Assembly (NCBI GenBank): GCA_049303575.1
Contig: JBAQNH010000002.1
Coordinates: 444,541 to 508,540 of the forward strand
Origin: Microgenomates group bacterium
GTDB lineage: Bacteria; Patescibacteriota; Microgenomatia; UBA1400; MFAQ01
Direction of reading: 5' to 3'
DNA: 64,000 nucleotides
Below, in pieces: positions 3,037 to 49,438 of this stretch (within the stretch, counting starts at the first letter, position 1; every line of letters starts with the position of its first letter). The notes below the pieces were generated by a model. It saw only the letters and a program-made list of their open reading frames with translations, was not told where the DNA came from and searched no databases. The position numbers and the translations under genes are program-made.

Positions 3037-4117
3037 AAAAGTAATAGTTCATTTAATTCAATCGTTAGATAGTGGGGGGTGTGAAAACATGCTTCTACGG
3101 ACGTTGCCACTCATGAAGAAATTCGATCATGTAATAATCACTCTAAACAAAAGAGGAAATCTTGCTGATAAATTTGAGGGAAAAGGAGTCCGAGTTGTAA
3201 ATATCAATCAGAAGAGTCTGGTTGATTTATTCTCATATCGTCGATTAAAAATTAAGATAAAACAATTAAAACCAAATTTAATTATTACTTATTTGTTTCA
3301 TGCAGATTTGATTGGAAGATTGTATCTCCAGTCAATTTCTAAAATAAAGGTTGTCCCATTTTTACGAACAACATACAATCATAAAAATTATTGGCAAGCC
3401 AGGTTATTTGAAAAGCTTACCAAAGGATTGGTTTATGAATATCTTGCAAACTCAGAAGCAGTCAAAGATTATTATGTTAATCAGATAGGAGTCAAAAAAA
3501 ATAATATTACTGTGATTCCAAACGGTATTGATATAGATTATTACAATAGTATTCCAAAAGATCTTACACTTAGGAAGAATATGGGTATCAAACTATCTGA
3601 TACTGTCATAATTTGTGTGGCAAACCTACATGTTAATAAAGGGCACAAATATCTACTAGAAGCCTTTGAGTTGTTATATAAAACGAACAAGAATATTAAA
3701 CTATTACTAGTTGGGGATGGTGTAGAAAAGGAAAATCTCTTGAATCAAATATATAGTTATCATTCAAAAAATTATATTCTCTTTTTAGGAAATAGAAATG
3801 ATGTTCCTTTGCTTCTAAAAATATCAGATATATTTGTTCTTCCAACATTATTTGAAGGAATGAGTAATGCTATCTTAGAAGCGATGGCAGTAGGTTTACC
3901 TGTTATTTCAACCAAGATTCCTGAAAATATTTCGATTTTGGGAGCTAACGATTTAGTAGAATCGGAATCGAGTGAATCTATTTACCAAAAATTATTCCAG
4001 TATCTTTCAGGAGTAAGTTTATCAAATATGATTATAAAACAAAAGAAAATTATTAAATCAAATTTTGATCTCTCAATAGTATCCAAGGATTTTGAAAATT
4101 ATTTACAAGGGAAATGA
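3029..4117 (+). CDS. Glycosyltransferase family 4
   Basis: C-terminal FEGMSNAILEAMAVGLPVISTKIPE is the GT4 EX7E motif. The track ORF starts at 2990; the internal ATG at 3029 removes the overlap with the upstream gene. Confidence 0.8.
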   Translation: MSKKVIVHLIQSLDSGGCENMLLRTLPLMKKFDHVIITLNKRGNLADKFEGKGVRVVNINQKSLVDLFSYRRLKIKIKQLKPNLIITYLFHADLIGRLYLQSISKIKVVPFLRTTYNHKNYWQARLFEKLTKGLVYEYLANSEAVKDYYVNQIGVKKNNITVIPNGIDIDYYNSIPKDLTLRKNMGIKLSDTVIICVANLHVNKGHKYLLEAFELLYKTNKNIKLLLVGDGVEKENLLNQIYSYHSKNYILFLGNRNDVPLLLKISDIFVLPTLFEGMSNAILEAMAVGLPVISTKIPENISILGANDLVESESSESIYQKLFQYLSGVSLSNMIIKQKKIIKSNFDLSIVSKDFENYLQGK

Positions 4118-4845
4118 AACCGACATATATTTTTAGAGTTGATGACATCTGTCCGACAATGAATTGGAAAAACTTTGATCGGCTTGAAGAGATATTTGAT
4201 AAATATAATATAAAACCTATTGTAGGAATAATCCCAGACAATAAAGATACCAAATTACATGTTAATAATCCAAATATTGAATATTGGAAAAGAATGAAAT
4301 TGCTTGTAACAAAGGGGTGGGTAATTGCCCAACACGGTTATCAACACCAATATATTAATAAGGAACCTGGCATGTTAGGTATTACTAATCATAGTGAATT
4401 TTCAAAAATAAAATATTCTGAGCAATATAAGAAAATTTCATCAGGTAAAAAAATATTAGAAAAAAAATTAGGAATAAAAATAAAATGGTGGATGGCACCA
4501 TCTCACAGTTTTGATGAAACCACGTGTAAGGTATTAGTAGATCTCAAATTCAAATATATTACCGATGGAATAGCCCTTTATCCGTATATAAGAAATGGAT
4601 TAATTTGGGTACCACAACAATTATGGAAGCCTGCTAAAAAATTATTTGGAGTCTGGACGATTTGTATACATCCAAACTCAGAGAATGATATGACTTTGTC
4701 CACAATTGAACGTTTTATCGTTAACAACATGATAGGAAATTCAGATATTGACTTGTTAATTCGATATTCAATATTTAATTATCTATATTATATATATTGG
4801 AAAATAATCCATATTATGTCAAGAATTTATGAATTACATAGATAA
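4114..4845 (+). CDS. DUF2334-like putative polysaccharide deacetylase
   Basis: N-terminal FRVDDICP, and HGYQH in the middle, match the DUF2334 pattern from memory. ATGA overlap with the upstream GT. Confidence 0.5.
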   Translation: MKPTYIFRVDDICPTMNWKNFDRLEEIFDKYNIKPIVGIIPDNKDTKLHVNNPNIEYWKRMKLLVTKGWVIAQHGYQHQYINKEPGMLGITNHSEFSKIKYSEQYKKISSGKKILEKKLGIKIKWWMAPSHSFDETTCKVLVDLKFKYITDGIALYPYIRNGLIWVPQQLWKPAKKLFGVWTICIHPNSENDMTLSTIERFIVNNMIGNSDIDLLIRYSIFNYLYYIYWKIIHIMSRIYELHR

Positions 4846-5548
4846 TACATTTCGATATACCAACGCGAGTATTTACGACAGGAGGTCTATAAAACCAATT
4901 GAAAAATATATTAAGTCAATTTGGGATCCAATATTAATCAATACACTTAGAAAGAATATCTCACCGAATGATATTATATGCGATTTAGGTTCTGGAACAT
5001 TTGAATATACACAATATATGGGAATGGCAAAAGAAATATTTGCAGTAGAAATTAACAAGAAAATGATTGATGGAGGAACGAATAAAATTAAACATATTAG
5101 CAATAAAGTAAACATCCTTTGTGAAAACGCGCTTTCTAGTAGTATTGCAAATAAATCTTGTTCAATAGTTTGGATCATAGGATTGTTAGAATATGTTGAC
5201 TTGCATAAAATATTTGATGAAATAGGTCGTGTTAGTAAAAATAAGACGAAGTTATTTATCCAATTTCCTAATCTATTTCATCCATATAATTTTGGTATTA
5301 ATATAATTTATAAAATACTTGGTATACCAATAAAAAAATATCATACATTGTCAGAAGTGAAAACAATCGCACGTCAAAATGGATTTATTCTTAAAAAAAC
5401 AACGAGTAGAGGAATATTTCTACTAGTACCAGAATCAGTTCAAGACAAGCTAATTTGGCTTTGGAAAATACTTGAAAAGGTTGTAAAACCTATACAATCT
5501 ATATTTCCATTAGGAATCAACGTATTCTGTGAGTTTGAGAAAGGATGA
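4829..5548 (+). CDS. Class I SAM-dependent methyltransferase
   Basis: ICDLGSGTFEY is a motif I variant, followed by an acidic residue; a WIIGLLEYV motif II-like segment follows. Confidence 0.6.
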   Translation: MNYIDNTFRYTNASIYDRRSIKPIEKYIKSIWDPILINTLRKNISPNDIICDLGSGTFEYTQYMGMAKEIFAVEINKKMIDGGTNKIKHISNKVNILCENALSSSIANKSCSIVWIIGLLEYVDLHKIFDEIGRVSKNKTKLFIQFPNLFHPYNFGINIIYKILGIPIKKYHTLSEVKTIARQNGFILKKTTSRGIFLLVPESVQDKLIWLWKILEKVVKPIQSIFPLGINVFCEFEKG

Positions 5549-6623
5549 GACTCGACCATTGTTTGGAGATTTGCCTTATATCATGATTTGCACAAACGTA
5601 TTTATAAGCGTTTGATGATTTGGTTTTATATTCTCCTGAATTTCTAAGAAGACGATCAACCTGCTTAATAAATAATCCAAAATCATTATTTGAAAAATAT
5701 CCAAGGTTATATGTAGAAATGAAATTATCGGGGTTAACATTAAGTGATACAACAGGAGTTTTTCCAACACATGCCTGAAGATATACGTTTGGGAATCCTT
5801 CAAATTTAGATGTTCCAACTAATAGTTTAGCTTTATTAAAATACGTTTGTATTTTATCGAACGGAACACTTTCAACAAATTTAAGATTGTTAATATATTT
5901 AGATTCATTATAGATTGTGTTCCAAAGTATACGATTTGATGATTTTGGCATTATCATAACAAACTTATTATCAGGTAGTAATCTACATAATTGTAAAAAT
6001 AAATTTGGTTGTTTTACTTCTCTTGCTGATCCAACCCACAATATATATTCACCCTTTGCCTTGATTGAATTTTCAATATTAATACCATTCCTTATTACAA
6101 TAGAATTTTTATTGTGAAATTTTTTTAGGTCACTTTTTTGCTGTTTGTTTTGAACAATTACGATATCCGCATTTATTAATCCGTATCTATAGACCTGTCC
6201 AAAAAAATATCCCATTAACCTAATTTTTTCATTCGTACAGTCAACGCTACTGGCGGAACGGAATATAAAACGCTTTCCATATATTTTGCAGAATAATGCA
6301 ATTAGTCCTATTTCAAACCCTGCTGAAGATGAAATGAATATATCTGAATCTGCCTTTACAAGAGATTTCCACAATACAAAAGGAACGGCAAGAATATTAA
6401 AAATATTCTTTTTCAATGAAATAGATTTTATTATTTCGATATTCTTCTTCTTTTGATTTACAGTGCCAAAATCACCAACTATAAATTTAATCTTAAAGTT
6501 TTTGTTAGTACTTAATATTTCAGAAATTTGACCAAGTTGCGATTCCGTCCCACCAATTGAAACCGTCGAATCATTCGAAAAATATGAAAACGAAAATAAA
6601 TTTACGAAGCAAATACTTGTCAT
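5517..6623 (-). CDS. Glycosyltransferase family 4
   Basis: SKFEGFPNVYLQACVGKTPVVS is the GT4 E-x7-E region. Last gene of a 10-gene minus-strand operon. Confidence 0.75.
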   Translation of the reverse strand: MTSICFVNLFSFSYFSNDSTVSIGGTESQLGQISEILSTNKNFKIKFIVGDFGTVNQKKKNIEIIKSISLKKNIFNILAVPFVLWKSLVKADSDIFISSSAGFEIGLIALFCKIYGKRFIFRSASSVDCTNEKIRLMGYFFGQVYRYGLINADIVIVQNKQQKSDLKKFHNKNSIVIRNGINIENSIKAKGEYILWVGSAREVKQPNLFLQLCRLLPDNKFVMIMPKSSNRILWNTIYNESKYINNLKFVESVPFDKIQTYFNKAKLLVGTSKFEGFPNVYLQACVGKTPVVSLNVNPDNFISTYNLGYFSNNDFGLFIKQVDRLLRNSGEYKTKSSNAYKYVCANHDIRQISKQWSSLILSQTHRIR

Positions 6624-7378
6624 TTCTTAAGTATTGTAACTATATACGGAGACCACCATTTACAATCTCTAAATGAAATATTTAAGAGACGAGATAACCA
6701 ATCTATAATAATTTGAAATAAATATCCAATTCTTAATAACCATATATTTCCAGAAAACAGCCCAAAGTTAATTCCACCAACATAATCGTTAAATATAATT
6801 TTTAGTTTATATTCTTTTGAAATGTTTTCAAAATATTTAAGGTTCATTACTTCATCGTTGTGAATATTTAAAACTCTTCGATCAAGTATTGTTTGAATAT
6901 ATTTATTAATTCCGTTTAAATTGGGTACAATAATAATTATTAATCCTCTGGGCTTTGTTAAATTTACGTGAATTTTTATAATATCATCTAACATTTTTCC
7001 TCTAAAGTGCTCTATGAAACCTGCTGAAAAAACGACATCGTACTGTATATCATTTTTATACTTGAGAATATTTGATTTGATTAAAGTCGATTTAATATTT
7101 AGATAGTCCAGATTCCTTTTTGAGATTTCTATTGCATTATTGGTATAGTCAAGCCCGTATACTTGATATCCAAATACTGTATGAAAATAATGCATCCAAC
7201 TTCCTGGTGCACAACCAATTTCAAAAAATTCAATTTTTTTCGATTTTGATAATTTATCAATAAATATATTATTTAATCGTAAAAACGGTAAGCTATGTAA
7301 ATTTTCAGTAATTGGAAGCCTTCTTTCTCTTTTATATAACCGATTCCAATATGATTTTGAAGTCATTTCTTCCTTCAT
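6620..7378 (-). CDS. Class I SAM-dependent methyltransferase
   Basis: FFEIGCAPGSWMHYF matches motif I. The gene overlaps its neighbour in the minus-strand operon. Confidence 0.65.
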   Translation of the reverse strand: MKEEMTSKSYWNRLYKRERRLPITENLHSLPFLRLNNIFIDKLSKSKKIEFFEIGCAPGSWMHYFHTVFGYQVYGLDYTNNAIEISKRNLDYLNIKSTLIKSNILKYKNDIQYDVVFSAGFIEHFRGKMLDDIIKIHVNLTKPRGLIIIIVPNLNGINKYIQTILDRRVLNIHNDEVMNLKYFENISKEYKLKIIFNDYVGGINFGLFSGNIWLLRIGYLFQIIIDWLSRLLNISFRDCKWWSPYIVTILKK

Positions 7379-7397
7379 AAGGATAAATTTATTAGAA

Positions 7398-8246
7398 TCA
7401 TTTTTTAAAAAATAGTATCTGATGGCAACCTAAATTATCTGAACTAATAATTTTCTTAACAAAAAATCCTTTGTTGCTAAAATAGTTAATTAATTCGTCA
7501 ACAGAGGCGTATTCGTACGGATAACCGCCAAGCCAATCTTTGATATCTGTCGTAAAAAACATTCCTCTATTGTTGTAGTTTTTGATGTATAAAAATGGAT
7601 TCCTCAAGGTCAGAATGTATCCAAAAACAAACCATATATAGTAAAGATACTCAATAATTTTTTTACCAAACCAACCAGAAGAATTATATGTTTTTTTTAT
7701 CTTAAGCCATAAATCTGATGAACCTGAAAACAATGCACTCAATCCCCGGTTTTTGTTATATATAGCTAATATCAAATAACTATTTTTTTTACATATTTTA
7801 ATAATATTGTTAAAGGCTTGATACATATCTCCGGTGTGATGAAGAACACCCCATGAATAGACAATGTCGAATTTTCCCAACGAATTGACGAATTTTTGAT
7901 TCAATATAGAACCATGTTTTACAAGCCAATTAATGGGATTATCCTCCTGTTGTTTAAGACGATTTACACACTTGATAGAATATTTATCGATATCAACACT
8001 TAGCAGCTTTGCAACCCCAAAACGGTAAGCTGCAAATGAAAACAAACCGCTTCCACATCCAATGTCAATAAATGACTTGTTTTTAAGCTGTGACTTAGAT
8101 ATGAGATCCAACATTGAATTTTCAGCTTGTATGATTTTTTTTGGTGATACTTTATTCAGGTATTCTTGCCAGTTTTCGCCAAAACTAAAATGATCTTTAT
8201 CCTTGTATGAATTTTCATATAATAAATGGTGATCTCTTTTTTTCAT
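7398..8246 (-). CDS. Class I SAM-dependent methyltransferase
   Basis: FIDIGCGSGLFSFAA is motif I; VDID and VYSWGVLHH follow downstream. Confidence 0.75.
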   Translation of the reverse strand: MKKRDHHLLYENSYKDKDHFSFGENWQEYLNKVSPKKIIQAENSMLDLISKSQLKNKSFIDIGCGSGLFSFAAYRFGVAKLLSVDIDKYSIKCVNRLKQQEDNPINWLVKHGSILNQKFVNSLGKFDIVYSWGVLHHTGDMYQAFNNIIKICKKNSYLILAIYNKNRGLSALFSGSSDLWLKIKKTYNSSGWFGKKIIEYLYYIWFVFGYILTLRNPFLYIKNYNNRGMFFTTDIKDWLGGYPYEYASVDELINYFSNKGFFVKKIISSDNLGCHQILFFKK

Positions 8247-8262
8247 GGGAAGTAAAAACTAT

Positions 8263-9561
8263 TTAGTCATTTCTAATTGCTCTTTTAACAAAAGATGATG
8301 TGAAATTTGCCCCCCCCTTATTAAAAGATTTTAATAATTTATCCATATCAGTCCAAAAGATGTCAGAAATATTCTTCTCGCTAAACTGTTCCAATACATA
8401 ATTGCGGCCATTTATTGCGATGCGCTCTAATTCATTTTGATGTCTTTGATAATATTTAATCTTTTCTATCAACATTGAAAAACTGCCATCATATGAAATA
8501 TAATTCAGCCCATTAATCATACCTATTCGTTTATACATATCATCTTCAAGACCAATATAGGCACAACCACACGCCATCCCTTCAAAAACATTTACAGAAG
8601 GCAGACCGACAATTTCTTCTGGACTAATGAACATTTTATATGAATTGTATTTTTCCACAATATTAAATGAAAAATATTTATTTAAAAAATTTGGATAAAA
8701 TTTCTCCAAAATAAAATAAGGTAAATATTTCTTGCAGATTTTAGTTACAAAGGAATCGTTTTTTTTGGCGGTTTTTAAATTGTTGATATCGTCGTATAAA
8801 TATAGTAAAAACTCGATCTGTTTTTGATATTTAGATATTTTTCTATTATCATATAAAGTTTTTCTCATAGGATGCAGATTTTGCCCCTTACCGAAATAGT
8901 CGTTTAGGGGATGGGTAATAGCTTGTGAAATGGTTCCAACTGCCATGCACTTGTCACTTCTATCCGAAAATGTTTGAGTATCTTTAAATCTGGGAGATAA
9001 AGTAAATGGAAGTTGATATACGCTTTTTACGTCTGGAAAAAAATTCATAAAATACATGTTATGTGATATATCATTTTCAGCAAGAAGGAAGCTATTTTTT
9101 ACAGAAGAAAGATATTTAGATATATGATTTGTTCCAACGAAATAATGAGTTAGATGAGTCAAGACTACACCATCATATTTATGGAATTGCATATTGTTAT
9201 TATTTAGAACATATGATCCATCGATGGTTGAATGTGAATAATTTAAAATAATATCTTTTTTGGGGTTTAGATTATCGACATTAAAATACACTTTCACTTT
9301 TAATGGATTAATATTATTGATAATCATCCAAATTAGTAACTCAATGTAGGATATAACTTTTGATAACAACACAAATCTGATTCCTATCCCGTTTAATGAA
9401 GATTTTGAGCCATCAACAATAAATGCTACATCTCTATTTTTACTTAATATGTATTCAGTAATGAAAAAACTATATTTCTTATGACCCTTTCGTGAAATTA
9501 CTAAATCTAAGAGCGTCCTCCCGATTAAATGAACCTGAGGGTTAGATATTACTAATCTCAT
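8263..9561 (-). CDS. CgeB-like / GT1-type glycosyltransferase (C-terminal Glyco_trans_1_2-like domain)
   Basis: C-terminal VFEGMACGCAYIG...LIEKIKYYQRHQNELERIAINGRNYVLEQFS resembles the CgeB/DUF3880 family C-terminal domain. Confidence 0.55.
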   Translation of the reverse strand: MRLVISNPQVHLIGRTLLDLVISRKGHKKYSFFITEYILSKNRDVAFIVDGSKSSLNGIGIRFVLLSKVISYIELLIWMIINNINPLKVKVYFNVDNLNPKKDIILNYSHSTIDGSYVLNNNNMQFHKYDGVVLTHLTHYFVGTNHISKYLSSVKNSFLLAENDISHNMYFMNFFPDVKSVYQLPFTLSPRFKDTQTFSDRSDKCMAVGTISQAITHPLNDYFGKGQNLHPMRKTLYDNRKISKYQKQIEFLLYLYDDINNLKTAKKNDSFVTKICKKYLPYFILEKFYPNFLNKYFSFNIVEKYNSYKMFISPEEIVGLPSVNVFEGMACGCAYIGLEDDMYKRIGMINGLNYISYDGSFSMLIEKIKYYQRHQNELERIAINGRNYVLEQFSEKNISDIFWTDMDKLLKSFNKGGANFTSSFVKRAIRND

Positions 9562-10349
9562 TTTTTAATTAAAAGATAATTCTTTGTAAATTTAGTGTTA
9601 GAGTCAACTTTTATTATCCAATCATCACTAATTTTTTTTAAAAATTTGTCTACCACCCTTCTCAGTCCTGAATCGCAGCCGTAATCGTCAAAAAGGATAT
9701 AAGCTTTATCAGCAATAAGATCTCCGTCAATTAAAATATCGAAAATTTCTATTGCAGATTGGGAAACATCACAATCAATGTGTATAAAACAAAACCCCTT
9801 TACATTTATAGTCATTAGATATTTAAGGATCTCCTGTTTTTGTCTATATAAATATTTTTTTATGTGAATTTGTTTTATTGTTTCAGGATATAAGATATTG
9901 CTATTCAGTACATTTTTTTTACACAATCTTAACGACGTATTATTAAACTGTCCCTTAAAAAACAGTTTGTCTTCATAAGGCAATCCTATAAAACCATCAA
10001 TACCAATCAACTTCTTGTTAATAATCGCGAATCTTTCCATAAAATATGCAATCCAAAGCAATGAAAATCCTCGCCATGATCCAAATTCAATAAATTCACC
10101 CTTCAACCCAGAACACTTACTGATAATTTTTTTAAAGTTTATTAATCGACCAATTTGGTGTTCAAATTCTCTATTACCAGTGTTCTTTATTTTATCGTAA
10201 TATTTTTTATTTAAATCATTAATATTATAAATTAAACTCATCGGCTTTAAACTATCTAACAAATTATATTTTTTTATCCCATTAGCCATTAAATATAATT
10301 TGTTAGAAAGTTTTTCTCCTAAAATATTTTTAATAATCTTTTTTATCAT
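9558..10349 (-). CDS. TylF/MycF-family (macrocin-type) sugar O-methyltransferase
   Basis: GEFIEFGSWRGFSL matches the TylF E-x-G-v-w-R-G motif. HIDCDV...ILFDDYG matches the TylF Mg/SAM region. Confidence 0.6.
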   Translation of the reverse strand: MIKKIIKNILGEKLSNKLYLMANGIKKYNLLDSLKPMSLIYNINDLNKKYYDKIKNTGNREFEHQIGRLINFKKIISKCSGLKGEFIEFGSWRGFSLLWIAYFMERFAIINKKLIGIDGFIGLPYEDKLFFKGQFNNTSLRLCKKNVLNSNILYPETIKQIHIKKYLYRQKQEILKYLMTINVKGFCFIHIDCDVSQSAIEIFDILIDGDLIADKAYILFDDYGCDSGLRRVVDKFLKKISDDWIIKVDSNTKFTKNYLLIKK

Positions 10350-10891
10350 TTTTTTATTTTATCCCAAACACCTGATCTATTAATAAGGCTCAGACTAAAC
10401 AAGTCAAATGGTTCGAAGAATTTTTCCAATATATGAAGGCATGCTTCTGCCACAGCACCCTCACCACCCCTCGCTTTTGTTACGTAGTCTGCCAATTCTT
10501 TTGTTTTATAAAACGCATTTGCAGGAGCGATACTGTATCCTACTTTTTTAAACACCAACGGGTCGTATATTCCGTCGCCCATATATATTGTCTCAGCAAG
10601 GTTGTATCTTTGTTCAATCCATTCAACTCGGTTGAAAGTGCTCACCAAATCTAAAGGAAGCTTCATGTCATCAGCAATCCTTTTCTTTGTTATGGCAAAC
10701 CCATTTTTATCACCGGAAATTGCGTGAATCACTAGTTTATCCTTTAATAAAGATAAAGCATCGTTATCCTCTGGTCCGAATTTTTTCATCACCTTTCCTT
10801 CGGTAGTATAGAAAAACGATCCATCAGTAAAAACACCATCGACATCGAGAATAAGATATTTAGGTTTCGTCATTTTTGTAGTTCTCTCCAT
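10346..10891 (-). CDS. HAD-IIIA phosphatase, KdsC/YrbI family (ulosonate/sugar-phosphate phosphatase)
   Basis: LILDVDGVFTDG is HAD motif I in the KdsC layout. The C-terminal MGDGIYDPLVFKKVGYSIAPANA is KdsC-like. Confidence 0.75.
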   Translation of the reverse strand: MERTTKMTKPKYLILDVDGVFTDGSFFYTTEGKVMKKFGPEDNDALSLLKDKLVIHAISGDKNGFAITKKRIADDMKLPLDLVSTFNRVEWIEQRYNLAETIYMGDGIYDPLVFKKVGYSIAPANAFYKTKELADYVTKARGGEGAVAEACLHILEKFFEPFDLFSLSLINRSGVWDKIKK

Positions 10892-12438
10892 AGATTTAAT
10901 TTACCAAAATAAAATAAGAACAAGTCAAATGGGTGATGATGAAGCGGAGACATATTAAGCCAAATTAGCGCAGAGAGTATTCTTACCTTTTTCTCGTTAA
11001 ATTGATTTTTATCAATAAAGTCAAACAAAACTTTTTGACATTGAACTAAATTTTCTTTTCTCAATATGTCGCAAGAAATCTTTCCTCCCTTTATATCAAT
11101 GGTAAAAAGATTTTCATTTACGATTCCGTGGTTCACTACCAAGTTGTGGTTTAGTTTTGCCAAATCATAATACTTATCACCAGATATGAGCAATCCTCCA
11201 AAATCCTGACGCCAGTCGAGTAGGGAATAGCCAGATTTTGTCTTAATTATATTGTCGAGTATAAAGTCACCATGGAACATACTCTGCTCCGCTTCACACA
11301 ACTCATTAAAATCTAACTTCTTAATTATTTCTTTTATTGAAGGAACAATCTCGCCATTAATAACGTCTTTTTGATCAACAATAGATCTAGAACTAAGAAA
11401 CTTATCTATTCTTTGAATTGTTTTTTTATAATAAAAATCTCTACAAATTGATTTGAACTTTTCATTACCAACCTCTTTAGTTTTTTTCCACAATTTTTTA
11501 TTTGCCCAATTTAAGAACTCTCGAAAGTCATTTGGATTTGCGACAGTTGAATATAGATCGCCTTGTGAATATTTATATTTAAAAAAGTTACTTTTCACAC
11601 CTTCTATTTTTGGAACCAATCCCTTAAGTATCTCTGCTCTTTTTACTCTCTTGGTTATGAGATCTTTATCCGAAAAAAACTTTACAACAAATTTATCAAA
11701 TATAAATATCGATTCTCCAAGCTTATCTAAAATATAAAAAGTATCATTTATTTCCTGTCTTGCTTTTTGTAAACACTCAACGTTTCCAGTGTCGTACCAC
11801 TTTTTAAAATCAACCGCTTTAAAACCAATCTCATTCTTAAACATGACATTTAAAGCCTTCACGTCATTTAATGATGAATCATTAGGATTTTTCTCGTATA
11901 GATTTCCAAGTGAAGACCAAAAGGCTTTAAAGTCGTTTATTCCCACAAGACCAATGTGTAGAAAATCAGGATCAAAATTTCCTTTGTCATATATTTCCTT
12001 AACTTTTTCTTCGATGACATCGAATGAGGAATATGCAGATGACCCTTCTCCTTTAAATCCTCCAATCCAGTTCTGGTTTGGAACCGGAATTTTTTGATCC
12101 ATCACGAGGGTGTCAGCTGCATGATAAATAAACGGACACATAAGAGCTTTCTTCGCCTTCAGCATTGAGTACCCGAGACTAGTTCCTGGACCCTCGTATT
12201 TATCCACTGTCACAAACTCGAAAGTTCTGTCCGGATATACCAGCTCCAAAAAGTCTCTTACCTGATTACCAAAATACCCAAGAGTAATAACAAACTCAGT
12301 TTTTTTTGGATAGGCCTCAATAATGTATGAAATCGCTGGTTTTTTCCCCACCTTAACTAAAGATTTATTCGTATATTGAGTAATTTCACCCAATCTAGAT
12401 CCAGTCCCCGATGTAGTAACTAGTACTTTAAATTTCAT
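10870..12438 (-). CDS. Bifunctional nucleotidyltransferase (N-term) / APH-ChoK-fold kinase (C-term) fusion; substrate unknown
   Basis: N-terminal TTSGTGSRLGE...SLVKVGKKPAISYII is an NTP-transferase G-x-G-T-R-L fold of LicC/RmlA type. C-terminal HGDFILDNII is the Brenner catalytic loop of APH/choline-kinase-like enzymes. Confidence 0.6.
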   Translation of the reverse strand: MKFKVLVTTSGTGSRLGEITQYTNKSLVKVGKKPAISYIIEAYPKKTEFVITLGYFGNQVRDFLELVYPDRTFEFVTVDKYEGPGTSLGYSMLKAKKALMCPFIYHAADTLVMDQKIPVPNQNWIGGFKGEGSSAYSSFDVIEEKVKEIYDKGNFDPDFLHIGLVGINDFKAFWSSLGNLYEKNPNDSSLNDVKALNVMFKNEIGFKAVDFKKWYDTGNVECLQKARQEINDTFYILDKLGESIFIFDKFVVKFFSDKDLITKRVKRAEILKGLVPKIEGVKSNFFKYKYSQGDLYSTVANPNDFREFLNWANKKLWKKTKEVGNEKFKSICRDFYYKKTIQRIDKFLSSRSIVDQKDVINGEIVPSIKEIIKKLDFNELCEAEQSMFHGDFILDNIIKTKSGYSLLDWRQDFGGLLISGDKYYDLAKLNHNLVVNHGIVNENLFTIDIKGGKISCDILRKENLVQCQKVLFDFIDKNQFNEKKVRILSALIWLNMSPLHHHPFDLFLFYFGKLNLWRELQK

Positions 12439-13117
12439 TTTTCAATTTATTATCAATTGTTTTCCTGAACTCTTTGATTTTTACATTAACTTTCACGTCT
12501 GGCTTAAAGATTGAAGATGTACCACAGACAAGAATGTCTGCTCCTGCTTTAATCATTTCTGCTGCAGTATCCGGATTTACTCCACCATCAATTTCAATAA
12601 GAATCTTTTTTCCAGAAGTAATAATCTTTTCTTTCAAGTCCGAAATCTTCTTAAATATTCCAGGAATTACCTTATGTCCAACAATTCCAGGGTTTATAGC
12701 CATTAGCTCGACCATATCCACATCGTCTAGGATGTAGTCGAGAGCATTTAGTGGAGTCGCATAGTTCAAAACTACTCCTGCTTTAACGCCACACTCTCTA
12801 ATCTTTTTTAATGTTAGATGAAGATGTTTGCATGATTCGAAATGAACCGCAATGATATCTGCTCCAGCATCAGCAAACTCTTTAATGTATCTTCCGGGCT
12901 CTTCAGTCATCATATGAACATCGATAGGGAGATGAGAAACCTTCTTTATTGAAGATAATAGTTCAGGGTATAAGCCATATCTGGGAACAAAATTACCATC
13001 CATCATATCGAAATGGATATAATCAATTTTGCCTTTTTCTAAGTTTTTTACTTCTTTCCCAAACTCCAGGTGGTTTGCACAAATTAGAGAAGCTGATAGA
13101 TAGTATCTTTTTTTCAT
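12428..13117 (-). CDS. rpe: Ribulose-phosphate 3-epimerase
   Basis: IHFDMMDGNFVP, DVHMM, GVKAGVVLN, MAINPG, IDGGVN and AGADILVCGTSSIF are the canonical RPE motifs in the canonical order. Confidence 0.9.
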   Translation of the reverse strand: MKKRYYLSASLICANHLEFGKEVKNLEKGKIDYIHFDMMDGNFVPRYGLYPELLSSIKKVSHLPIDVHMMTEEPGRYIKEFADAGADIIAVHFESCKHLHLTLKKIRECGVKAGVVLNYATPLNALDYILDDVDMVELMAINPGIVGHKVIPGIFKKISDLKEKIITSGKKILIEIDGGVNPDTAAEMIKAGADILVCGTSSIFKPDVKVNVKIKEFRKTIDNKLKNEI

Positions 13118-13118
13118 A

Positions 13119-13673
13119 TTATTCCAAATTTGAGTGTCTTTTCCACATTGTTTCGTGAGTTTCTTTCATTTTTTCCATAAGTTCCAAAACCACGGCATCA
13201 TAAAATATTCCCAGACATTGTTCGTTCAAAGTAGTCATTGGTTGAATTGAAGAGAATCCATCAACCGACTTAGTTTTTGATGGGGCTTTTATCTGAACGA
13301 TAATATCAGCAAGTTTTCCAATTCTGGACTTTGGATCTCCTGTAACAAGTAACACTTTCGCTTTGTTTTTTTTGGCAATCAAAACCAAGTCATATATTGT
13401 TTGGGTTTCCCCAGATCCTGAACTGACAATAAATAAGTCTCCCTTACCTATTGAAGGAACCGTTGAGTCTCCCAAGGTATAAGCATTGAGTCCCAAATGA
13501 CCCAATCTCATTCCAAATCCTCTCGTGGCCATTCCTACTCGGCCAGCACCACACAAAACGATTTTATCTGCTTTCAAAATTGATGCCACTAATTGCTTGA
13601 TTTCTTTATTGTTCAAAGAATCTAACACAGTATCAATTTCTCTCAATATTCTTTTAATATAACTACTTATCAT
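13119..13673 (-). CDS. hxlB: SIS-domain sugar-phosphate isomerase, 6-phospho-3-hexuloisomerase (HxlB/PHI)-like
   Basis: CGAGRVGMATRGFGMRLGHLGLNAY, FIVSSGSGETQ and the C-terminal ...ETMWKRHSNLE align closely with remembered B. subtilis HxlB (AGAGRSGLMAKSFAMRLMHMG ... ETMFTHHANLE). Confidence 0.8.
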   Translation of the reverse strand: MISSYIKRILREIDTVLDSLNNKEIKQLVASILKADKIVLCGAGRVGMATRGFGMRLGHLGLNAYTLGDSTVPSIGKGDLFIVSSGSGETQTIYDLVLIAKKNKAKVLLVTGDPKSRIGKLADIIVQIKAPSKTKSVDGFSSIQPMTTLNEQCLGIFYDAVVLELMEKMKETHETMWKRHSNLE

Positions 13674-14997
13674 GTTTAACCAAATAATCTATTGACATAT
13701 TTATATATGATTTAATCAAATACTTTTGAATTATTATTACGATCATAGCATTTAATATGTACAAAATAACTAATGCTTGAACTGAAATAGCGTGAAAGAA
13801 TATTAATAATCCATATGCCAATATATGAAAAATATTTATCAAAGTTTGTAATAATACAAAATGTCGATATATTTCTTTTGATATAGATACAAGAATGTTT
13901 CCATTTATTGATAGATATACATAAAGTGCAGATAAAATTGAAAAACTCAGTACCAGATTTAGATTAATACTATACTTCGCACCAAACAATGAAATTGCAA
14001 CTAATATCACACCAATCATTAATATGATTAAAGGTAGTGAACAAATTAAAAATAATCTGTCGATTTTCTTTACCACTACCCTGTAGTTAATCCCAGAAAT
14101 TGAGGGAAGAAAAACATTAATAAACATTTGAGTTAACTGTGCCATCAGGTTAACTGACACCATATAATATGCACTGTAAATCCCCAAATCAGTGAAGGTT
14201 AAATATTTTACGATAATTAATTTGTCTATCGAATTAAAACCGACAGCTAATACAGTACCAATAAAGATTATCCTACCTAGTGATAATTGTTTTAATAGGG
14301 ATGAAAAATCAAAATGAGTTATATATGGAATAATTTTTTTAAAATAAATTGCCAACAACACCAGAAATCCGAAAATTAGGGATATTACAAAAAAATAATA
14401 GTCATGTCTATTCCCTAAAACAAAAGTAAAATAAAAAATAATTCCCAATATTAAAATCTCAGTAATTTTCCCAAAAAATTGATATCTAAATAAATGTAAA
14501 CCACGAATTATTGAATCAAGAAAGGCTTTATAACCTACCAATAATGAATAAATAAATGCAATTACAAAAAATGATTTTCCCAAAGAAAATCTCAAATTAA
14601 GATAATTTAGAGAAAAAATAAAAATGATTGTCAGCAATATAGAGGAAAGAAAAACAAAAAAAATCGAACTTGAAATTATTTTTTTTCGGTCAGTAATATC
14701 ATTGTTCTTAGATATTGATATCAAACTCGACACATCCAACCCGAATAACATTGGGACAATTAAGATTTGTGCGATTGTGGTAATGAGACTATATTTCCCA
14801 AATTCTTCAGGACCCATTAACCTCCCCGCATAAATATTTATTATCATCATAATTGCTGAGGCAGTAATTCCCCCAGCAACTGACCATGAAAGATGTCTCA
14901 GAAATTTTCTCATTTGATCGCTCATTTCATGCTGAAACAGCTTCAAATGTAAAATTTCGGCAACAGCGACAATACCCTTCTTAATTGTAGAAATCAT
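13663..14997 (-). CDS. Wzx-like polysaccharide flippase (MOP superfamily)
   Basis: A ~12-TM hydrophobic profile over 444 aa with no soluble domain. Its position as first gene of the glycan operon is typical for Wzx. Confidence 0.6.
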   Translation of the reverse strand: MISTIKKGIVAVAEILHLKLFQHEMSDQMRKFLRHLSWSVAGGITASAIMMIINIYAGRLMGPEEFGKYSLITTIAQILIVPMLFGLDVSSLISISKNNDITDRKKIISSSIFFVFLSSILLTIIFIFSLNYLNLRFSLGKSFFVIAFIYSLLVGYKAFLDSIIRGLHLFRYQFFGKITEILILGIIFYFTFVLGNRHDYYFFVISLIFGFLVLLAIYFKKIIPYITHFDFSSLLKQLSLGRIIFIGTVLAVGFNSIDKLIIVKYLTFTDLGIYSAYYMVSVNLMAQLTQMFINVFLPSISGINYRVVVKKIDRLFLICSLPLIILMIGVILVAISLFGAKYSINLNLVLSFSILSALYVYLSINGNILVSISKEIYRHFVLLQTLINIFHILAYGLLIFFHAISVQALVILYILNAMIVIIIQKYLIKSYINMSIDYLVKHDK

Positions 14998-15081
14998 GGA
15001 CTTATTGTATTTTAGTCTATATTTTCCTCATCTACACAGCTATGAGGAATATATAAATTTGAAAAGCTATAATAAAACCAG

Positions 15082-16632
15082 ATGTTTAGGAAATACGCTT
15101 TATATTTTTTTCCAATTTGCCTTTCACTATTAATCTCGATCAACTTTTTTTGGTCAGAATCATTTCTTTCTGGGTTTGATACCCCCTTCTATCTCTCGAC
15201 AATCAGAGATTTTGCTCGAGATGTGCCGAGTATTACCAACTATTTTATTCTTGATCGCTACTTGGTAATTGGGTTTCCAGCGTTACTTTCCAGATTGTTT
15301 AATCTTGATCCTGTGGCGTCATACCGAATCGCAATTACGGTAATTTCTGCAATTATTTCCATTCTTATTTCGAAACTGATGTTCAAGCTAACAAAATCGC
15401 GTCTGGCAGGAATTGCATTGGCATCAGCGGTGATTATTTCTCCATACCTTTTAACGTATTCATACATGCTTTTTGCCAATTACACGAGCTTTGTTATTTT
15501 ATTTGCCTTCTTTGCCATTGAGCTTGGTAAAGAGTTTCGACTTAAAAGTGTTGTTCTCGGGGTGGTACTAGGCTTAATATTTTATATCCACAATTTTTCT
15601 TCAGTGGCTTACAGTCTGGTCGTTGGTCTATATTTCATTTTTAAGTTAATCCTAGAGGACAATAGACTTTCTACTATTAAACGCGCGACCGTTATTTTAC
15701 TCATATCCTGTGTAATTGGTTTTTTCCAGATAATTAAGTATTTTCCAGTGACCCTACCACCATTTTTGACGGTTGCGTCATCGTCTTCGTTCGTCGGTTC
15801 TATTATTAATAAAATCAAAATCATTGCGCCTAGCCAACCAGCTGTATTAGGTGACGAGGTACAAAGAATCAAAGCCACATTTTTAGATGAAACAGGCAAG
15901 TATTGGTTAGTGTATTTTGTTTGTTTCTCATTGTTCGCATTTATCACCAAAAGAAAAGAAATAGTTCTTAATCTAAAAAAGTTTGCATTTCCCCTGGCCC
16001 TATTTATTGTTGGTCTAGTGTTTTCATTTCAACCCCTTGTTGGTCTAAATTTTCTACCGGAAAGATTTATTGGTCTTGTGATAATTTCCACCTTTTTCTT
16101 TTACGCCATTTTCCTGTCACTTTTTTCAAAAAGTAAAGTATTTAAAATTTTGGCCGTATTACCACTCTTGTTTACTTACCTTTCCTCGGACACAAAAATT
16201 CTTAATCGAGGCCCCGTATTCGTAAACGATATGGAAGTCTCTTTTTATCAAAAAATTGCACAAATCGTACCTAAAGAAAATTCATATATTTTACTTCCTA
16301 GTGGCAACTATTACTGGGCAAAATATTATCTTGATGGCTACACTTTTATGCCAGGTGATTACTTTATCGCTTGTGGTATTGTAAAAATACCAGATTATCA
16401 AAATTCTGCTGATGTCGCTTATGCAAAGTTACTATCAGAAAAAAGTGTCGAAGAGGCTCAACTCTTACTAAAAGCAACAAAAAATTCAATATACATGAAT
16501 ATCACGATCAAAAAACTATACATCATTACCAATCATTCAATGAACTGTAGTGAGGGATATGTATTGGACAAGCTAAGTGGTGTAAAACTAATTTTGAACA
16601 AGGATAATTTTTACCTATATGAAGTACTTTAA
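15082..16632 (+). CDS. Polytopic membrane protein with C-terminal soluble domain (candidate GT-C transferase or polymerase)
   Basis: About 11 TM segments, then a ~120 aa hydrophilic C-terminus. Divergent from the minus-strand glycan operon. Confidence 0.4.
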   Translation: MFRKYALYFFPICLSLLISINFFWSESFLSGFDTPFYLSTIRDFARDVPSITNYFILDRYLVIGFPALLSRLFNLDPVASYRIAITVISAIISILISKLMFKLTKSRLAGIALASAVIISPYLLTYSYMLFANYTSFVILFAFFAIELGKEFRLKSVVLGVVLGLIFYIHNFSSVAYSLVVGLYFIFKLILEDNRLSTIKRATVILLISCVIGFFQIIKYFPVTLPPFLTVASSSSFVGSIINKIKIIAPSQPAVLGDEVQRIKATFLDETGKYWLVYFVCFSLFAFITKRKEIVLNLKKFAFPLALFIVGLVFSFQPLVGLNFLPERFIGLVIISTFFFYAIFLSLFSKSKVFKILAVLPLLFTYLSSDTKILNRGPVFVNDMEVSFYQKIAQIVPKENSYILLPSGNYYWAKYYLDGYTFMPGDYFIACGIVKIPDYQNSADVAYAKLLSEKSVEEAQLLLKATKNSIYMNITIKKLYIITNHSMNCSEGYVLDKLSGVKLILNKDNFYLYEVL

Positions 16633-25864: not shown

Positions 25865-27145
25865 ATGAATTTTTTCGATAATCTGAAAAAGAAATTTCGC
25901 GTCCACAGATATCTGATTTTAATTATTATTTTATTTGCAATCGGTACTTTTTTGAGGCTATACAACTTTCAAAACCGTTTGATTTTTGGTCCAGAACAGG
26001 CAATTTCTTTGATTACCGCTTCCTCGTACCTTGATAAGTTTTCCTTGTTGGGCGAAGTAAATCTTCAAAGAACCACTAGTACGGGTTTAAATCCATTTCA
26101 TGGAGCCTACTTTAATTATTTTCTTGTTCCATTTGTCATCTTATTTAAATTCAACCCCTTACCAATTACTTATTTTTTCTTATTCCTAAACCTCTTTACT
26201 GCTTATCTTTTTTTGTATGTTTCAAACAAGTTATTCGGAAAATTAATGGCTGTATTTGCCCTAATATACTTTTTATTCAGTTCCAAGATGATTCACCACT
26301 CTCTCTTTATATGGAATCTAAATTTTTTGCCCTTACTCGGAATTCTTGTTCTGTGGATACTTGCCAATCTTTATAAAAATCGACAAAAAGTAATCTACCC
26401 TTTCTGGCTAGGTATTATCGGTGGTATTGGTTTCGGTCTCCAATATTTATTTTTACCGTTCATAATTTTTACCTTTGTTCTTTCGATTCTATTGTCAAAA
26501 AAGAAAATCCAATCAATTATTGCCTTTGTTGTCGGAATAATAATTGGAGGCTTATCAATGGTTATTTTTGATCTTCGTCACGATTTTTATTACACAAGAA
26601 CTTTGTGGCAGTACTTTATTGATTCAATCAACAATAGGGTTAATGGCGGAATTCATTACTATGATTTTATGTATCTTTTACCATATCTATTTTTGATTTA
26701 TGCCGCGGTTACAACCGTACTCTACAAGACATGGAAACCACTGTGTTTAATTCCCCTTACCATCTTTATCTTCATTAGCTTAAAATCACCTCAAATTAAT
26801 TACCAAAACTCCACAGGAGTGGCCCCAGGAATCACTCTTAAGGCTCTTGAATCTGCTTCAGCAACTATTGCAGCTGACAACCCTCCAAAAAAATACAATG
26901 TGGTGACTCTCTGGGATTTTGATACTCGTGCTCATACCCTCCGTTACTTTCTAACTAATTACTACAAACGACCTCCCCAAGGAGTGGAAGAATACAAAAA
27001 TATAGATGCTTTATATGCATTTGCTCCAGAAGGCTACAATATTGATAGTCCTAATGTGTATGAACTCAACTCATTCTTTCCATATAAAATTACTGAGTTA
27101 TCATCAAATACCACAGGTTACCGTCTATACAAGCTAACCAAATGA
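25865..27145 (+). CDS. Polytopic membrane protein (candidate GT-C-type transferase)
   Basis: About 10 TM segments followed by a ~110 aa C-terminal soluble region. Sits inside a GT2/GT-C cluster. Confidence 0.4.
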   Translation: MNFFDNLKKKFRVHRYLILIIILFAIGTFLRLYNFQNRLIFGPEQAISLITASSYLDKFSLLGEVNLQRTTSTGLNPFHGAYFNYFLVPFVILFKFNPLPITYFFLFLNLFTAYLFLYVSNKLFGKLMAVFALIYFLFSSKMIHHSLFIWNLNFLPLLGILVLWILANLYKNRQKVIYPFWLGIIGGIGFGLQYLFLPFIIFTFVLSILLSKKKIQSIIAFVVGIIIGGLSMVIFDLRHDFYYTRTLWQYFIDSINNRVNGGIHYYDFMYLLPYLFLIYAAVTTVLYKTWKPLCLIPLTIFIFISLKSPQINYQNSTGVAPGITLKALESASATIAADNPPKKYNVVTLWDFDTRAHTLRYFLTNYYKRPPQGVEEYKNIDALYAFAPEGYNIDSPNVYELNSFFPYKITELSSNTTGYRLYKLTK

Positions 27146-47640: not shown

Positions 47641-47704
47641 TCCGAACCTAATTCCACCTTTTGAGTTTTTGTTTTGTCTTTTCACATCCCCTTTACACAC
47701 CCCT

Positions 47705-47765: not shown

Positions 47766-47797
47766 TACCCCCATTCTGAAGCCTGCCAATATGAATT

Positions 47798-49435: not shown

Positions 49436-49438
49436 TCG

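Follow-up and report, generated by a model that had tools for sequence, protein, structure and literature searches.

A conserved glycan-island gene cassette of uncultured bacteria that probably makes a nucleotide-activated rare sugar

In the GDP-D-glycero-alpha-D-manno-heptose pathway, whose genes are embedded in surface-glycan clusters, a SIS-fold isomerase (GmhA) converts a ketose phosphate to an aldose omega-phosphate, an anomeric kinase (HddA) and a HAD phosphatase that takes off the distal phosphate (GmhB) follow, and a nucleotidyltransferase (HddC) yields the NDP-sugar; the pathway is the precedent for an isomerase/kinase/phosphatase/nucleotidyltransferase sequence. Anomeric hydroxyls are also phosphorylated by kinases of the APH fold (MtnK, NahK, AmgK and Mak), and in MurNAc/GlcNAc recycling by AmgK/MurU, as with NahK-type kinases, such a kinase is paired with a small LicC/MurU-type nucleotidyltransferase. 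The CDP-choline enzymes LicC and LicA, which occur as a LicCA fusion in Treponema, combine a nucleotidyltransferase with a choline-kinase-fold kinase, and the substrate of LicC is a phospho-alcohol, not a sugar-1-phosphate. The RPE family takes part in two further systems: in D-allose catabolism AlsE and RpiB/AlsI interconvert fructose-6-phosphate (F6P), allulose-6-P and allose-6-P, and in the RuMP pathway PHI (HxlB) and RPE flank HPS (HxlA). GatZ/KbaZ is a C4-epimerase that converts F6P to tagatose-6-P (PMC11907403).

The window analysed here is a 64-kb stretch of DNA; its source genome belongs to the Candidate Phyla Radiation (Microgenomates). The original prediction had described five consecutive, overlapping minus-strand genes at 9558-13673 as a sugar-activation module. 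All five ORFs are present there, adjacent ones overlapping by 4-22 nt or separated by a 1 nt gap, consistent with a single translationally coupled operon, and profile scores and an AlphaFold2 model uphold the families assigned to them: a PHI-like SIS protein, an RPE, a fusion of a nucleotidyltransferase with an APH-fold kinase (here called NTK), a KdsC-like HAD phosphatase and a TylF methyltransferase. The operon further takes in a flippase upstream and a glycosyltransferase downstream; the latter, omitted from the predicted module, is also part of the cassette unit. The features are as follows.

13663..14997, minus strand: Wzx-type flippase at the operon head, given as context (PF01943, 65 bits)
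13119..13673, minus strand: PHI-like SIS sugar-phosphate isomerase of a diverged HxlB subfamily (184 aa; TIGR03127)
12428..13117, minus strand: RPE-family ketose-phosphate 3-epimerase with an altered capping loop (229 aa; TIGR01163)
10870-12438, minus strand: NTK, whole ORF (522 aa)
11746..12438, minus strand: NTK N-terminal domain, residues 1 to ~231, sugar-phosphate nucleotidyltransferase by fold matches of the AF2 model
10873..11745, minus strand: NTK C-terminal domain, residues 232-522, APH/choline-kinase-fold kinase (AF2/Foldseek), proposed anomeric sugar kinase
10346..10891, minus strand: KdsC/YrbI-type (C0) HAD phosphatase, proposed to act on the distal (omega) phosphate (181 aa; TIGR01670)
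9558..10349, minus strand: TylF-family O-methyltransferase, accessory tailoring step (263 aa; PF05711)
8263..9561, minus strand: glycosyltransferase-like protein of cluster c9, candidate transferase for the activated sugar (432 aa; weak PF13524)

We consider it probable that this is a dedicated cassette for a nucleotide-activated rare sugar that follows NDP-heptose logic with enzymes each non-orthologous to its heptose counterpart. Most likely, four co-transcribed genes (SIS, RPE, NTK and HAD), with the methyltransferase and the glycosyltransferase, convert a common sugar phosphate into such a sugar for a cell-surface glycan. The SIS isomerase and the RPE-like epimerase would turn a central ketose phosphate, most likely F6P, into the omega-phosphate of a rare sugar; NTK, through its APH-fold domain, would phosphorylate the anomeric hydroxyl with ATP as donor; the KdsC-type phosphatase would take off the distal phosphate; and the N-terminal domain of NTK would join the sugar-1-phosphate to an NTP to give the NDP-sugar. 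The TylF enzyme would then O-methylate the sugar, and the c9 glycosyltransferase and the Wzx flippase would deliver it to the surface glycan for which the remaining island genes code. Isomerisation, 1-phosphorylation, distal dephosphorylation, nucleotidylation and methylation, as originally ordered, are the most economical reading and mirror the NDP-heptose route; within it, we infer which sugar is the substrate, where it is phosphorylated, whether kinase or phosphatase acts first, which nucleotide is used and when methylation takes place. Literature searches found nothing on the NTK family or the cassette, a route without published description though carried by hundreds of uncultured bacterial lineages.

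The cassette shares with the heptose pathway its four-step logic and its setting in surface-glycan clusters, but its isomerase is a PHI-like SIS protein rather than GmhA (16.5 bits with the gmhA model, cut-off 209), its kinase has the APH and not the GHMP fold, its phosphatase is of the KdsC (C0) and not the GmhB type, kinase and nucleotidyltransferase are fused, an obligatory RPE-family epimerase is added, and the substrate is probably hexulose-6-phosphate instead of sedoheptulose-7-P. The fusion also sets it apart from AmgK/MurU, and the coupling of NTK to a phosphatase and a sugar-phosphate epimerase/isomerase suggests that the product is synthesised from a phosphorylated starting compound instead of being salvaged as a free sugar. 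As in D-allose catabolism, the SIS and RPE pair might link F6P to a rare hexose-6-phosphate; in contrast, the direction would be biosynthetic, the supply isomerase is PHI-like or, in related loci, a PMI-like cupin rather than RpiB or LacAB, and the RPE falls below the AlsE cut-off (182 versus 271 bits). Compared with the RuMP pathway, the SIS protein passes the HxlB cut-off, whereas HPS is absent from the window, the PHI motifs are altered and the genes lie in glycan clusters.

To compare 80 related loci, their modules were typed with HMMs as A (SIS and RPE) or B (a GatZ-like protein and a cupin). NTK and the phosphatase form the constant core, with a HAD homologue in the ~8-kb NTK flanks of 71 loci; in three loci from Saccharibacteria neither HAD nor cupin lies in these flanks, which we counted against the proposal. 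The supply modules are interchangeable: SIS/RPE is found at 50 of the 80 loci (the window included), GatZ-like/cupin at 24, both at none and neither at six, four of which end at a contig edge. SIS and RPE always accompany NTK and are replaced as a pair; SIS adjoins RPE in 46 loci, and SIS-RPE-NTK-HAD is syntenic in 46-50, always inside glycan clusters with glycosyltransferases, methyltransferases and flippases as neighbours, at NTK identities of only 35-72% to that of the window. Every Rosetta-stone fusion includes NTK (NTK-HAD, TylF-NTK, cupin-NTK, NTK-cupin, GatZ-like-NTK and NTK-GatZ-like), HAD being joined to its C-terminus in P0080, P0115 and P0119 and TylF to its N-terminus in P0068. TylF (PF05711, 41 bits, cut-off 23) occurs in 21 of the 80 loci and is accessory, not a member of the core. 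The central interpretation of the original prediction, a unit dedicated to a glycan island, is thus supported by the comparative evidence.

The RPE scores 221.4 bits with TIGR01163 (cut-off 212.6) and 217.8 bits with PF00834. Among solved structures it is closest to true RPEs (1rpx, 185 bits) and less close to AlsE (3ct7, 138 bits). The catalytic His/Asp motifs are retained. VPRYG stands in place of VPN(I/L)(T/S), and PGIVGHK in place of the capping loop PGFGGQ, both canonical in all five solved RPEs compared; the altered motifs are at least 80% conserved at most positions among cassette RPEs. The SIS protein, whose catalytic residues are likewise kept, scores 195.9 bits with the HxlB model TIGR03127 (cut-off 160) and 137 bits against B. 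subtilis YckF/HxlB (1m3s), with which its C-terminus (ETMWKRHSNLE) aligns, as had been proposed. Relative to four solved PHIs, GRSG is changed to GRVG, GE to GD and PMGxLFE to PMTTLNE; among 41 cassette copies, the GD and PMT.LNE residues are at least 90% conserved and the Val of GRVG at least 60%. These changes run through the whole family and affect motifs that solved RPEs and PHIs conserve; they mark both enzymes as specialised paralogues, not housekeeping enzymes, and the original prediction had likewise argued against a housekeeping role.

The name of the TIGR03127 model gives F6P/3-hexulose-6-P as the substrates of PHI, and the cupin of the alternative module has the PMI-type Q-x-H...E...H residues and a PF01050 match. 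The GatZ-like protein is a very remote relative of GatZ (E ~1e-7 to 2fiq), whose F6P C4-epimerase chemistry this module resembles. Together, PHI, GatZ/KbaZ chemistry and the PMI-like cupin point to hexulose-6-phosphate. We found no residue columns separating type A from type B in NTK, HAD, c4 or c6, and several B-type NTKs are nearer to NTKs of type A than to others of their own type, suggesting that the two modules are equivalent. The simplest two-step readings nonetheless differ, since one module would give allose or altrose and the other talose or galactose, which we counted against the proposal; either the downstream enzymes tolerate different sugars, or the real chemistry departs further from convention than the steps proposed here.

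Profile matches of NTK are weak (PF00483, 18.4 bits; APH(3'), 15.5 bits), and its AlphaFold2 model (pLDDT 92) shows a LicC/MurU/RmlA-type nucleotidyltransferase followed by an APH/choline-kinase-fold domain, the domain order of LicC/LicA. The motifs quoted in the original prediction are present (SGTGSRLG, residues 10-17; HGDFILDN, residues 389-396). The N-terminal domain is nearest to LicC both in fold (1jyk, TM 0.85 normalised to target, rmsd 2.3 A) and in sequence (E=9e-6), followed in fold by MurU (TM 0.77-0.78 normalised to target), UGPases and RmlA; the LicC match was counted against a sugar-1-phosphate substrate. The kinase domain (pLDDT 93) matches APH(2''), ethanolamine/choline kinases, fructosamine-3-kinase, MTR kinase and glucosamine kinase at TM ~0.5 and 10-17% identity, and with no close solved relative its acceptor is not readable from structure. 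A plain LicC/LicA pair was rejected: identity to LicC is 20%, the kinase TM is ~0.5, Pfam gave no choline-kinase or APH match, NTK falls below the cut-offs of the LicA, LicC and MurU models (MurU, 22.7 bits versus 250), and, unlike LicC/LicA, it is obligatorily associated or fused with a phosphatase and sugar-phosphate enzymes. G11, G13, R15, K25, D109 and D216 are intact in the window protein, and K253, H389-G-D391-x4-N396 and D408 are invariant in 72 homologues. A standalone nucleotidyltransferase paralogue accompanies 14 of the 19 relatives that have lost R15 or K25, as against 4 of 53 others (Fisher p=8e-8); together with the invariant kinase motifs, this indicates that both domains are needed.

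The closeness of the RPE to true RPEs was counted against a hexulose and is also compatible with a pentulose. RPE would then interconvert Ru5P and Xu5P, SIS would make an aldopentose-5-P (D-xylose-5-P, D-lyxose-5-P or D-arabinose-5-P), and NTK and HAD would shift the phosphate from C5 to C1, which locks the furanose, for an NDP-pentofuranose. The RPE score above the equivalog cut-off, the weak match of SIS to the arabinose-5-P isomerase KdsD of its family and the KdsC-like phosphatase fit this route; we nevertheless regard it as unlikely, since SIS is a strong member of the PHI family with its hexulose-6-P substrates, the invariant capping loop is replaced, and the alternative module pairs a GatZ-like protein (known substrates F6P and tagatose-6-P) with a PMI-like cupin. 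We know of no pentose activity for either. Quite improbable, in our estimate, is a LicC/LicA-like activation in which the kinase acts on a non-anomeric hydroxyl of the sugar freed by the phosphatase and the LicC-like domain makes a CDP-linked product akin to CDP-choline, CDP-ribitol or CDP-6-glucitol, for sugar-phosphate transfer to a phosphodiester-linked substituent. The LicC matches and the choline and ethanolamine kinases among the top kinase folds favour it, but direct cytidylylation of the omega-phosphate would need neither kinase nor phosphatase, yet HAD is nearly constant and sometimes fused to NTK; moreover, the sugar-1-phosphate enzymes MurU and RmlA/GalU are nearly equal fold matches, the Pfam choline-kinase match is absent, and c9, the dedicated neighbour, looks like a glycosyltransferase rather than a phosphotransferase.

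It is very improbable that two unrelated functions merely adjoin, with RPE/PHI serving a housekeeping pentose-phosphate or RuMP role beside a LicCA-type CDP-choline synthase and a KdsC. In its favour, both RPE and HxlB exceed NCBIfam equivalog cut-offs and CPR genomes are small; the absence of a second RPE holds for the 64-kb window. Comparative data largely refute this reading: RPE and SIS lie beside NTK in distant lineages and are exchanged as a pair, NTK is fused to HAD, TylF, cupin and GatZ-like protein, the motif changes are subfamily-specific, and NTK fails the LicA, LicC and MurU models. As originally noted, no HPS, KdsA/NeuB or GHMP kinase was found in the whole window, nor were KdsB, a second RPE, transketolase or transaldolase; in the related loci, no other family recurs among the neighbours.

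The phosphatase scores 80.2 bits with the KdsC model TIGR01670, under its cut-off of 106.95, and is thus KdsC-like at family level only; among solved proteins it is nearest to AQ2171 and KdsC, with conserved DVDGV and GDGxxD motifs. On an identical contig its gene call is 175 aa, starting at 10873. The c9 protein shares 44% identity with the member from L035, and the representative of its cluster matches Glyco_trans_1_2 and GT90; c9 is present at 16 loci, of which 15 belong to type A, immediately after HAD, TylF or c4. The flippase family c13 lies immediately before SIS in L002-L004, L008, L010, L013, L018, L022 and L039.

The five minus-strand ORFs of the cassette lie at exactly the coordinates given in the original prediction, and profile searches agreed with its family calls for the ribulose-phosphate 3-epimerase (RPE), the SIS isomerase, the KdsC-type HAD phosphatase and the TylF protein:

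13119–13673, minus strand: SIS isomerase resembling 6-phospho-3-hexuloisomerase (PHI)
12428–13117, minus strand: RPE-like epimerase
10870–12438, minus strand: NTK, a fusion of a nucleotidyltransferase and an APH-fold kinase
10346–10891, minus strand: KdsC-type HAD phosphatase
9558–10349, minus strand: TylF-like O-methyltransferase

These ORFs are joined to each other by overlaps of 4–22 nt or a 1-nt gap, and the same type of junction ties them to an upstream Wzx-type flippase gene (13663–14997) and a downstream glycosyltransferase-like gene (8263–9561). Divergent from this operon, on the plus strand, is a gene for a 516-aa protein with many hydrophobic stretches and no Pfam or NCBIfam match (15082–16632), which may be an unclassified polymerase or GT-C-like enzyme. 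Whole-window annotation showed that the first 42 kb form a large glycan island containing many GT1, GT2 and GT4 enzymes, methyltransferases, Gmd and other SDRs, two flippases, a Wzy_C protein, PMT_2 proteins, a ManC-like enzyme and a priming Bac_transf. Two other plus-strand ORFs of the island, 25865–27145 (426 aa) and 32076–32633 (185 aa), had no Pfam match at E≤1e-5. Beyond the island are RecO, GlmS and the dcw cell-division cluster; GlmS and the complete dcw-type cluster (MraW, a PBP transpeptidase, diacylglycerol kinase, MraY, FtsW, MurG, FtsA and FtsZ) occupy 45916–57932, and the organism therefore makes peptidoglycan. GC content is 28–34% over the cassette and its flanks (4000–16000), compared with 40–45% elsewhere (16000–64000). 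Thus, the stretch of the glycan island that holds the cassette stands apart in composition, and this region may be exchangeable.

Sequence searches with the 522-aa NTK yielded weak matches only, and those to PDB sequences were confined to the nucleotidyltransferase domain, with none for the kinase. An AlphaFold2 model (32 homologues, pLDDT 92) contained two domains, and a fold search assigned the N-terminal domain of this predicted model to the LicC/MurU/RmlA-like nucleotidyltransferases. Because this domain dominated the full-length fold search, the kinase domain was modelled alone (pLDDT 93). It adopts a generic APH/choline-kinase fold, with the best solved matches at a TM of ∼0.5 and 10–17% identity; its fold matches include MtnK and a glucosamine kinase, and the search gave no informative nearest structural neighbour. 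APH-fold kinases known to act on anomeric hydroxyls are MtnK, NahK, AmgK and Mak.

The kinase motifs (K253, H389-G-D391-x4-N396 and D408) and the nucleotidyltransferase residues D109 and D216 were invariant in the 72 NTK sequences aligned, and the signature G-x-G-(S/T)-R-L with Lys25 was mostly intact, being decayed in 19 sequences (a sequence was scored as decayed if its fused domain lacked Arg15 or Lys25). Invariant basic residues of the kinase domain are R264, R267, K339, R343, R410 and K428. A standalone paralogue of the nucleotidyltransferase domain (∼240 aa) accompanied 14 of the 19 decayed sequences versus 4 of the 53 intact ones (odds ratio 34, p=8e-8), which suggests that the free enzyme compensates for the decayed domain and implies that the pathway needs nucleotidyltransferase activity. 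Standalone copies were found at loci L013, L026, L027, L032–L034, L038–L042, L045, L047, L053, L059, L061, L063, L064, L079 and L086. Since the NTK in the window has all of its motifs intact and no standalone copy beside it, this protein most likely performs both the kinase and the nucleotidyltransferase reactions.

The NTK family is large and, to our knowledge, has never been studied, and full-text literature searches found no description of the cassette or of the fusion family. A scan of 1.84 billion cluster representatives returned 2385 proteins at E≤1e-3, of which 620 reach E≤1e-30, so that at 50% identity the family comprises 620 clusters or more; almost every one of the top 150 matches spans both NTK domains. 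Members of the family come mainly from Candidate Phyla Radiation bacteria, and the window belongs there too, its NTK being 100% identical to a hypothetical protein encoded on a 704-kb contig of a “Microgenomates group bacterium” MAG. From species-representative genomes we obtained 80 loci, all in metagenome-assembled genomes (MAGs), with an NTK 35–72% identical to that in the window. Patescibacteria were in the majority, and the other labels, some of them clearly unreliable, were Bacteroidota, Chlamydiae, Campylobacterota, Leptospirales, SAR86, Lachnospiraceae and DPANN archaea. ORFs within ∼8–10 kb flanks of each NTK were clustered and then re-typed with HMMs built from the clusters.

The same-family HAD phosphatase was found with the NTK at 71 of the 80 loci. 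Most loci also contain one of two alternative sets of genes that we refer to as supply modules. Type A, as in the window, consists of the PHI-like SIS and RPE (50 loci; both genes in 46, the other four being cut at a contig end). Type B (24 loci, L029 and L077 among them) consists of a 115-aa cupin, with PMI-like Q-x-H…E…H residues and a match to PF01050, and a 330–400-aa class II aldolase-fold protein distantly related to GatZ/KbaZ. The two types never co-occurred (0 of 80 loci), and of the six loci with neither, four end at a contig edge. The association of these genes was further seen in fusions among the NTK homologues:

P0080, P0115 and P0119: NTK–HAD
P0068: TylF–NTK
P0120: NTK–cupin
P0182 and P0269: cupin–NTK
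P0150: GatZ-like–NTK
P0201: NTK–GatZ-like

No residue columns separated type A from type B in alignments of NTK, HAD or two recurrent neighbours described below (c4 and c6), and type B NTKs were interleaved among type A NTKs in a rough neighbor-joining tree. These observations suggest that both modules deliver the same compound, and the picture that emerges from the sequences is of two interchangeable supply modules feeding the same core.

Metabolic reconstructions usually treat RPE and PHI as indicators of central carbon metabolism, and the original prediction argued against such a housekeeping role here. Our data support that view. In the 50 type A loci the recurrent neighbours of SIS were RPE, NTK and HAD; the RPE/SIS pair sat beside NTK and HAD in 46–50 loci from very distant lineages, invariably within glycan clusters, and was swapped as a pair for the other supply module. 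Annotation of the 64-kb window by profile searches identified no second RPE, transketolase or transaldolase, and bore out the absence, stated in the original prediction, of KdsA/NeuB, GHMP kinase and 3-hexulose-6-phosphate synthase (HPS, or HxlA), the adjacent or fused partner expected for a PHI.

Both proteins also differ from their solved relatives at motifs that are conserved within the cassette family. The cassette RPE scored 217.8 bits against PF00834 (cut-off 21.1) and 221.4 bits against TIGR01163, barely over the cut-off of 212.6, and was more similar to RPE than to AlsE. In comparison with the PDB sequences of five solved RPEs, the metal-binding and catalytic His/Asp residues (HxD, DxH, xDGG) are retained as HFDMMDG, DVHMM and EIDGG. 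Two elements invariant in the solved enzymes are altered: VPN(I/L)(T/S) is VPRYG, and the capping loop PGFGGQ is PGIVGHK; both replacements are conserved among cassette RPEs (at least 80% at most of these positions). Similarly, the cassette SIS scored 195.9 bits against the HxlB model TIGR03127 (cut-off 160) and matched Bacillus subtilis YckF at 137 bits, and the motifs GRSG, GE and PMGxLFE of four solved PHIs are replaced by GRVG, GD and PMTTLNE. Among 41 cassette copies, conservation reaches at least 90% for the GD and PMT.LNE residues and at least 60% for the GRVG valine. Judged from these comparisons, the cassette RPE and SIS are specialised subfamilies, though they exceed generic equivalog thresholds. 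Given the cassette linkage, the pairwise exchange and the altered RPE and PHI motifs, we conclude that they are very probably not housekeeping enzymes.

Other neighbours recurred as well. Of the window's five-gene block, the SIS-RPE-NTK-HAD part was conserved at 46–50 related loci, and TylF was found at 21 of 80 loci. The window's TylF matches PF05711 at 41 bits (cut-off 23) over profile positions 75–259 of 264. The c9 family of glycosyltransferase-like proteins occurs at 16 loci (15 type A loci and one other) and includes the window's 8263–9561 gene (44% identity to the member at L035). The c6 family, a 380-aa protein without a Pfam domain and with a weak C-terminal cupin, occurs at 22 of 80 loci and is fused to SIS at three (L030, 2144–3898; L031, 145–1365; L086, 5527–6954); at L052 (820–2091) SIS is instead fused to a standalone nucleotidyltransferase. 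Most frequent was c4, a 379-aa methyltransferase present in both cassette types at 47 of 80 loci (L007, L008, L011–L014 and 41 others), with no copy in the window. Its homologues include the NDP-sugar 3-C-methyltransferases MtmC, TcaB9 and KijD1 (E=9e-15), and a C-methyltransferase of this kind requires a keto group. Since the loci that bear c4 share no conserved dehydratase or oxidoreductase, the presence of c4 hints that the pathway sugar itself carries a keto group.

The claim that the cassette follows no textbook route held for RuMP, CMP-Kdo, NDP-heptose, AmgK/MurU and LicCA, each of which fails at least one defining feature. RuMP HxlB is rejected as the identity of SIS by the altered PHI motifs and the lack of HPS in the 64-kb window, and KdsC as that of HAD by a score of 80.2 bits against TIGR01670 (cut-off 106.95) and the lack of KdsA and KdsB in the same 64 kb. 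GDP-D-glycero-D-manno-heptose is made by the GmhA isomerase, HddA kinase, GmhB phosphatase and HddC nucleotidyltransferase. The cassette likewise brings these four activities together in a glycan cluster, a likeness of logic only and not of orthology, whereas each of its activities comes from another fold or subfamily. Orthology to GmhA, HddA and GmhB is excluded by scores of 16.5–22.7 bits against gmhA models (cut-offs 209–276), an APH-fold kinase and a KdsC-type phosphatase. In its working, NTK resembles both AmgK/MurU and LicCA. The MurU fold is similar (TM 0.77–0.78, normalised to target), and NTK is not a MurU member (22.7 bits against NF045761, cut-off 250); the match to LicC (1jyk, E=9e-6, 20% identity) is one of fold similarity only. 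Neither the choline kinase model (PF01633) nor the APH model (PF01636) was matched at E≤0.01 in the Pfam search, which speaks against a plain LicC/LicA pair. Nor does NTK act independently of sugar-phosphate enzymes, as such a pair would, because it is linked and sometimes fused to HAD, cupin, GatZ-like and TylF proteins. The cassette combines a familiar pathway logic with enzymes none of which is orthologous to those of the known route, and it probably makes a new sugar.

The data show gene content, conservation, motifs and folds, and from these we infer the following pathway. The SIS and RPE-like enzymes would convert a ketose phosphate to a rare sugar ω-phosphate, the NTK kinase would form the 1,ω-bisphosphate, HAD would hydrolyse this to the sugar 1-phosphate, and the NTK nucleotidyltransferase would produce an NDP-sugar to be O-methylated by TylF and transferred by c9. 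The phosphatase may instead act ahead of the kinase, which would lead to the same product. PHI interconverts fructose-6-P (F6P) and 3-hexulose-6-P. GatZ/KbaZ converts F6P to tagatose-6-P (PMC11907403). One enzyme in each supply module thus has F6P-acting relatives, which points by analogy to F6P as the entry metabolite.

What the modules make from F6P can be read in several ways. Conventionally, and again by analogy, type A would proceed through allulose-6-P to allose-6-P or altrose-6-P (the AlsE/RpiB route reversed), and type B through tagatose-6-P to talose-6-P or galactose-6-P. By pathway reasoning, the sole product shared by both modules two steps from F6P is D-lyxo-hex-3-ulose-6-P, and allowing a third step makes tagatose-6-P a shared product. 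A pentose route for the cassette seems improbable to us. A tentative, and on balance doubtful, proposal is that the PHI-like and RPE-like enzymes together constitute a “carbonyl-walking” C4-epimerase: PHI would shift the carbonyl of fructose-6-P to C3, and the RPE-like enzyme, with its remodelled capping loop, would invert C4 of the resulting 3-hexulose-6-P, yielding D-lyxo-hex-3-ulose-6-P, or tagatose-6-P after a second PHI step. Type A would then isomerise and epimerise, and the GatZ-like protein and cupin would epimerise and isomerise, to the same product. Carbonyl walking would fit an epimerase that is closer to RPE than to AlsE, because 3-hexulose-6-P shares its carbonyl-to-phosphate geometry with Ru5P; it would also fit the gene order SIS, RPE, NTK and, because a keto group is needed, the frequent C-methyltransferase homologue. 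If correct, the activated sugar would be D-talose, D-tagatofuranose or a 3-hexulose, for none of which do we know of a nucleotide donor, and c4, present in about half of the cassettes, would methylate the sugar at its free keto group and so make it branched.

Cell surfaces of Candidate Phyla Radiation bacteria mediate their episymbiotic lifestyle. Should the cassette operate in the way we propose, the bacterial repertoire would gain a new nucleotide sugar, and RPE and PHI in tiny genomes could be glycan-pathway paralogues, which would change pentose-phosphate and RuMP calls in many MAGs. It would also be a clean natural case of two non-homologous two-enzyme modules supplying one pathway. The cassette proteins are small and lack predicted membrane-protein domains, making the pathway amenable to direct in vitro work.

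Several loci depart from the general pattern. Three Saccharibacteria loci (L053, L059 and L068) contain the GatZ-like protein and NTK with no cupin or HAD within ∼8-kb flanks, L053 and L059 additionally carrying the standalone nucleotidyltransferase and c4; this minimal variant is not accounted for by current models. The NTK homologue P0240 has a 190-aa N-terminal extension (residues 1–190) that matches no cassette module. Finally, L030 (Patescibacteria) and L031 (Nanoarchaeota) have near-identical NTKs and loci under conflicting labels, and MAGs labelled “Bdellovibrionales” fall inside Moranbacteria in the NTK tree (loci with conflicting labels: L007, L009, L011 and L012), likely reflecting mis-binning or mislabelling.
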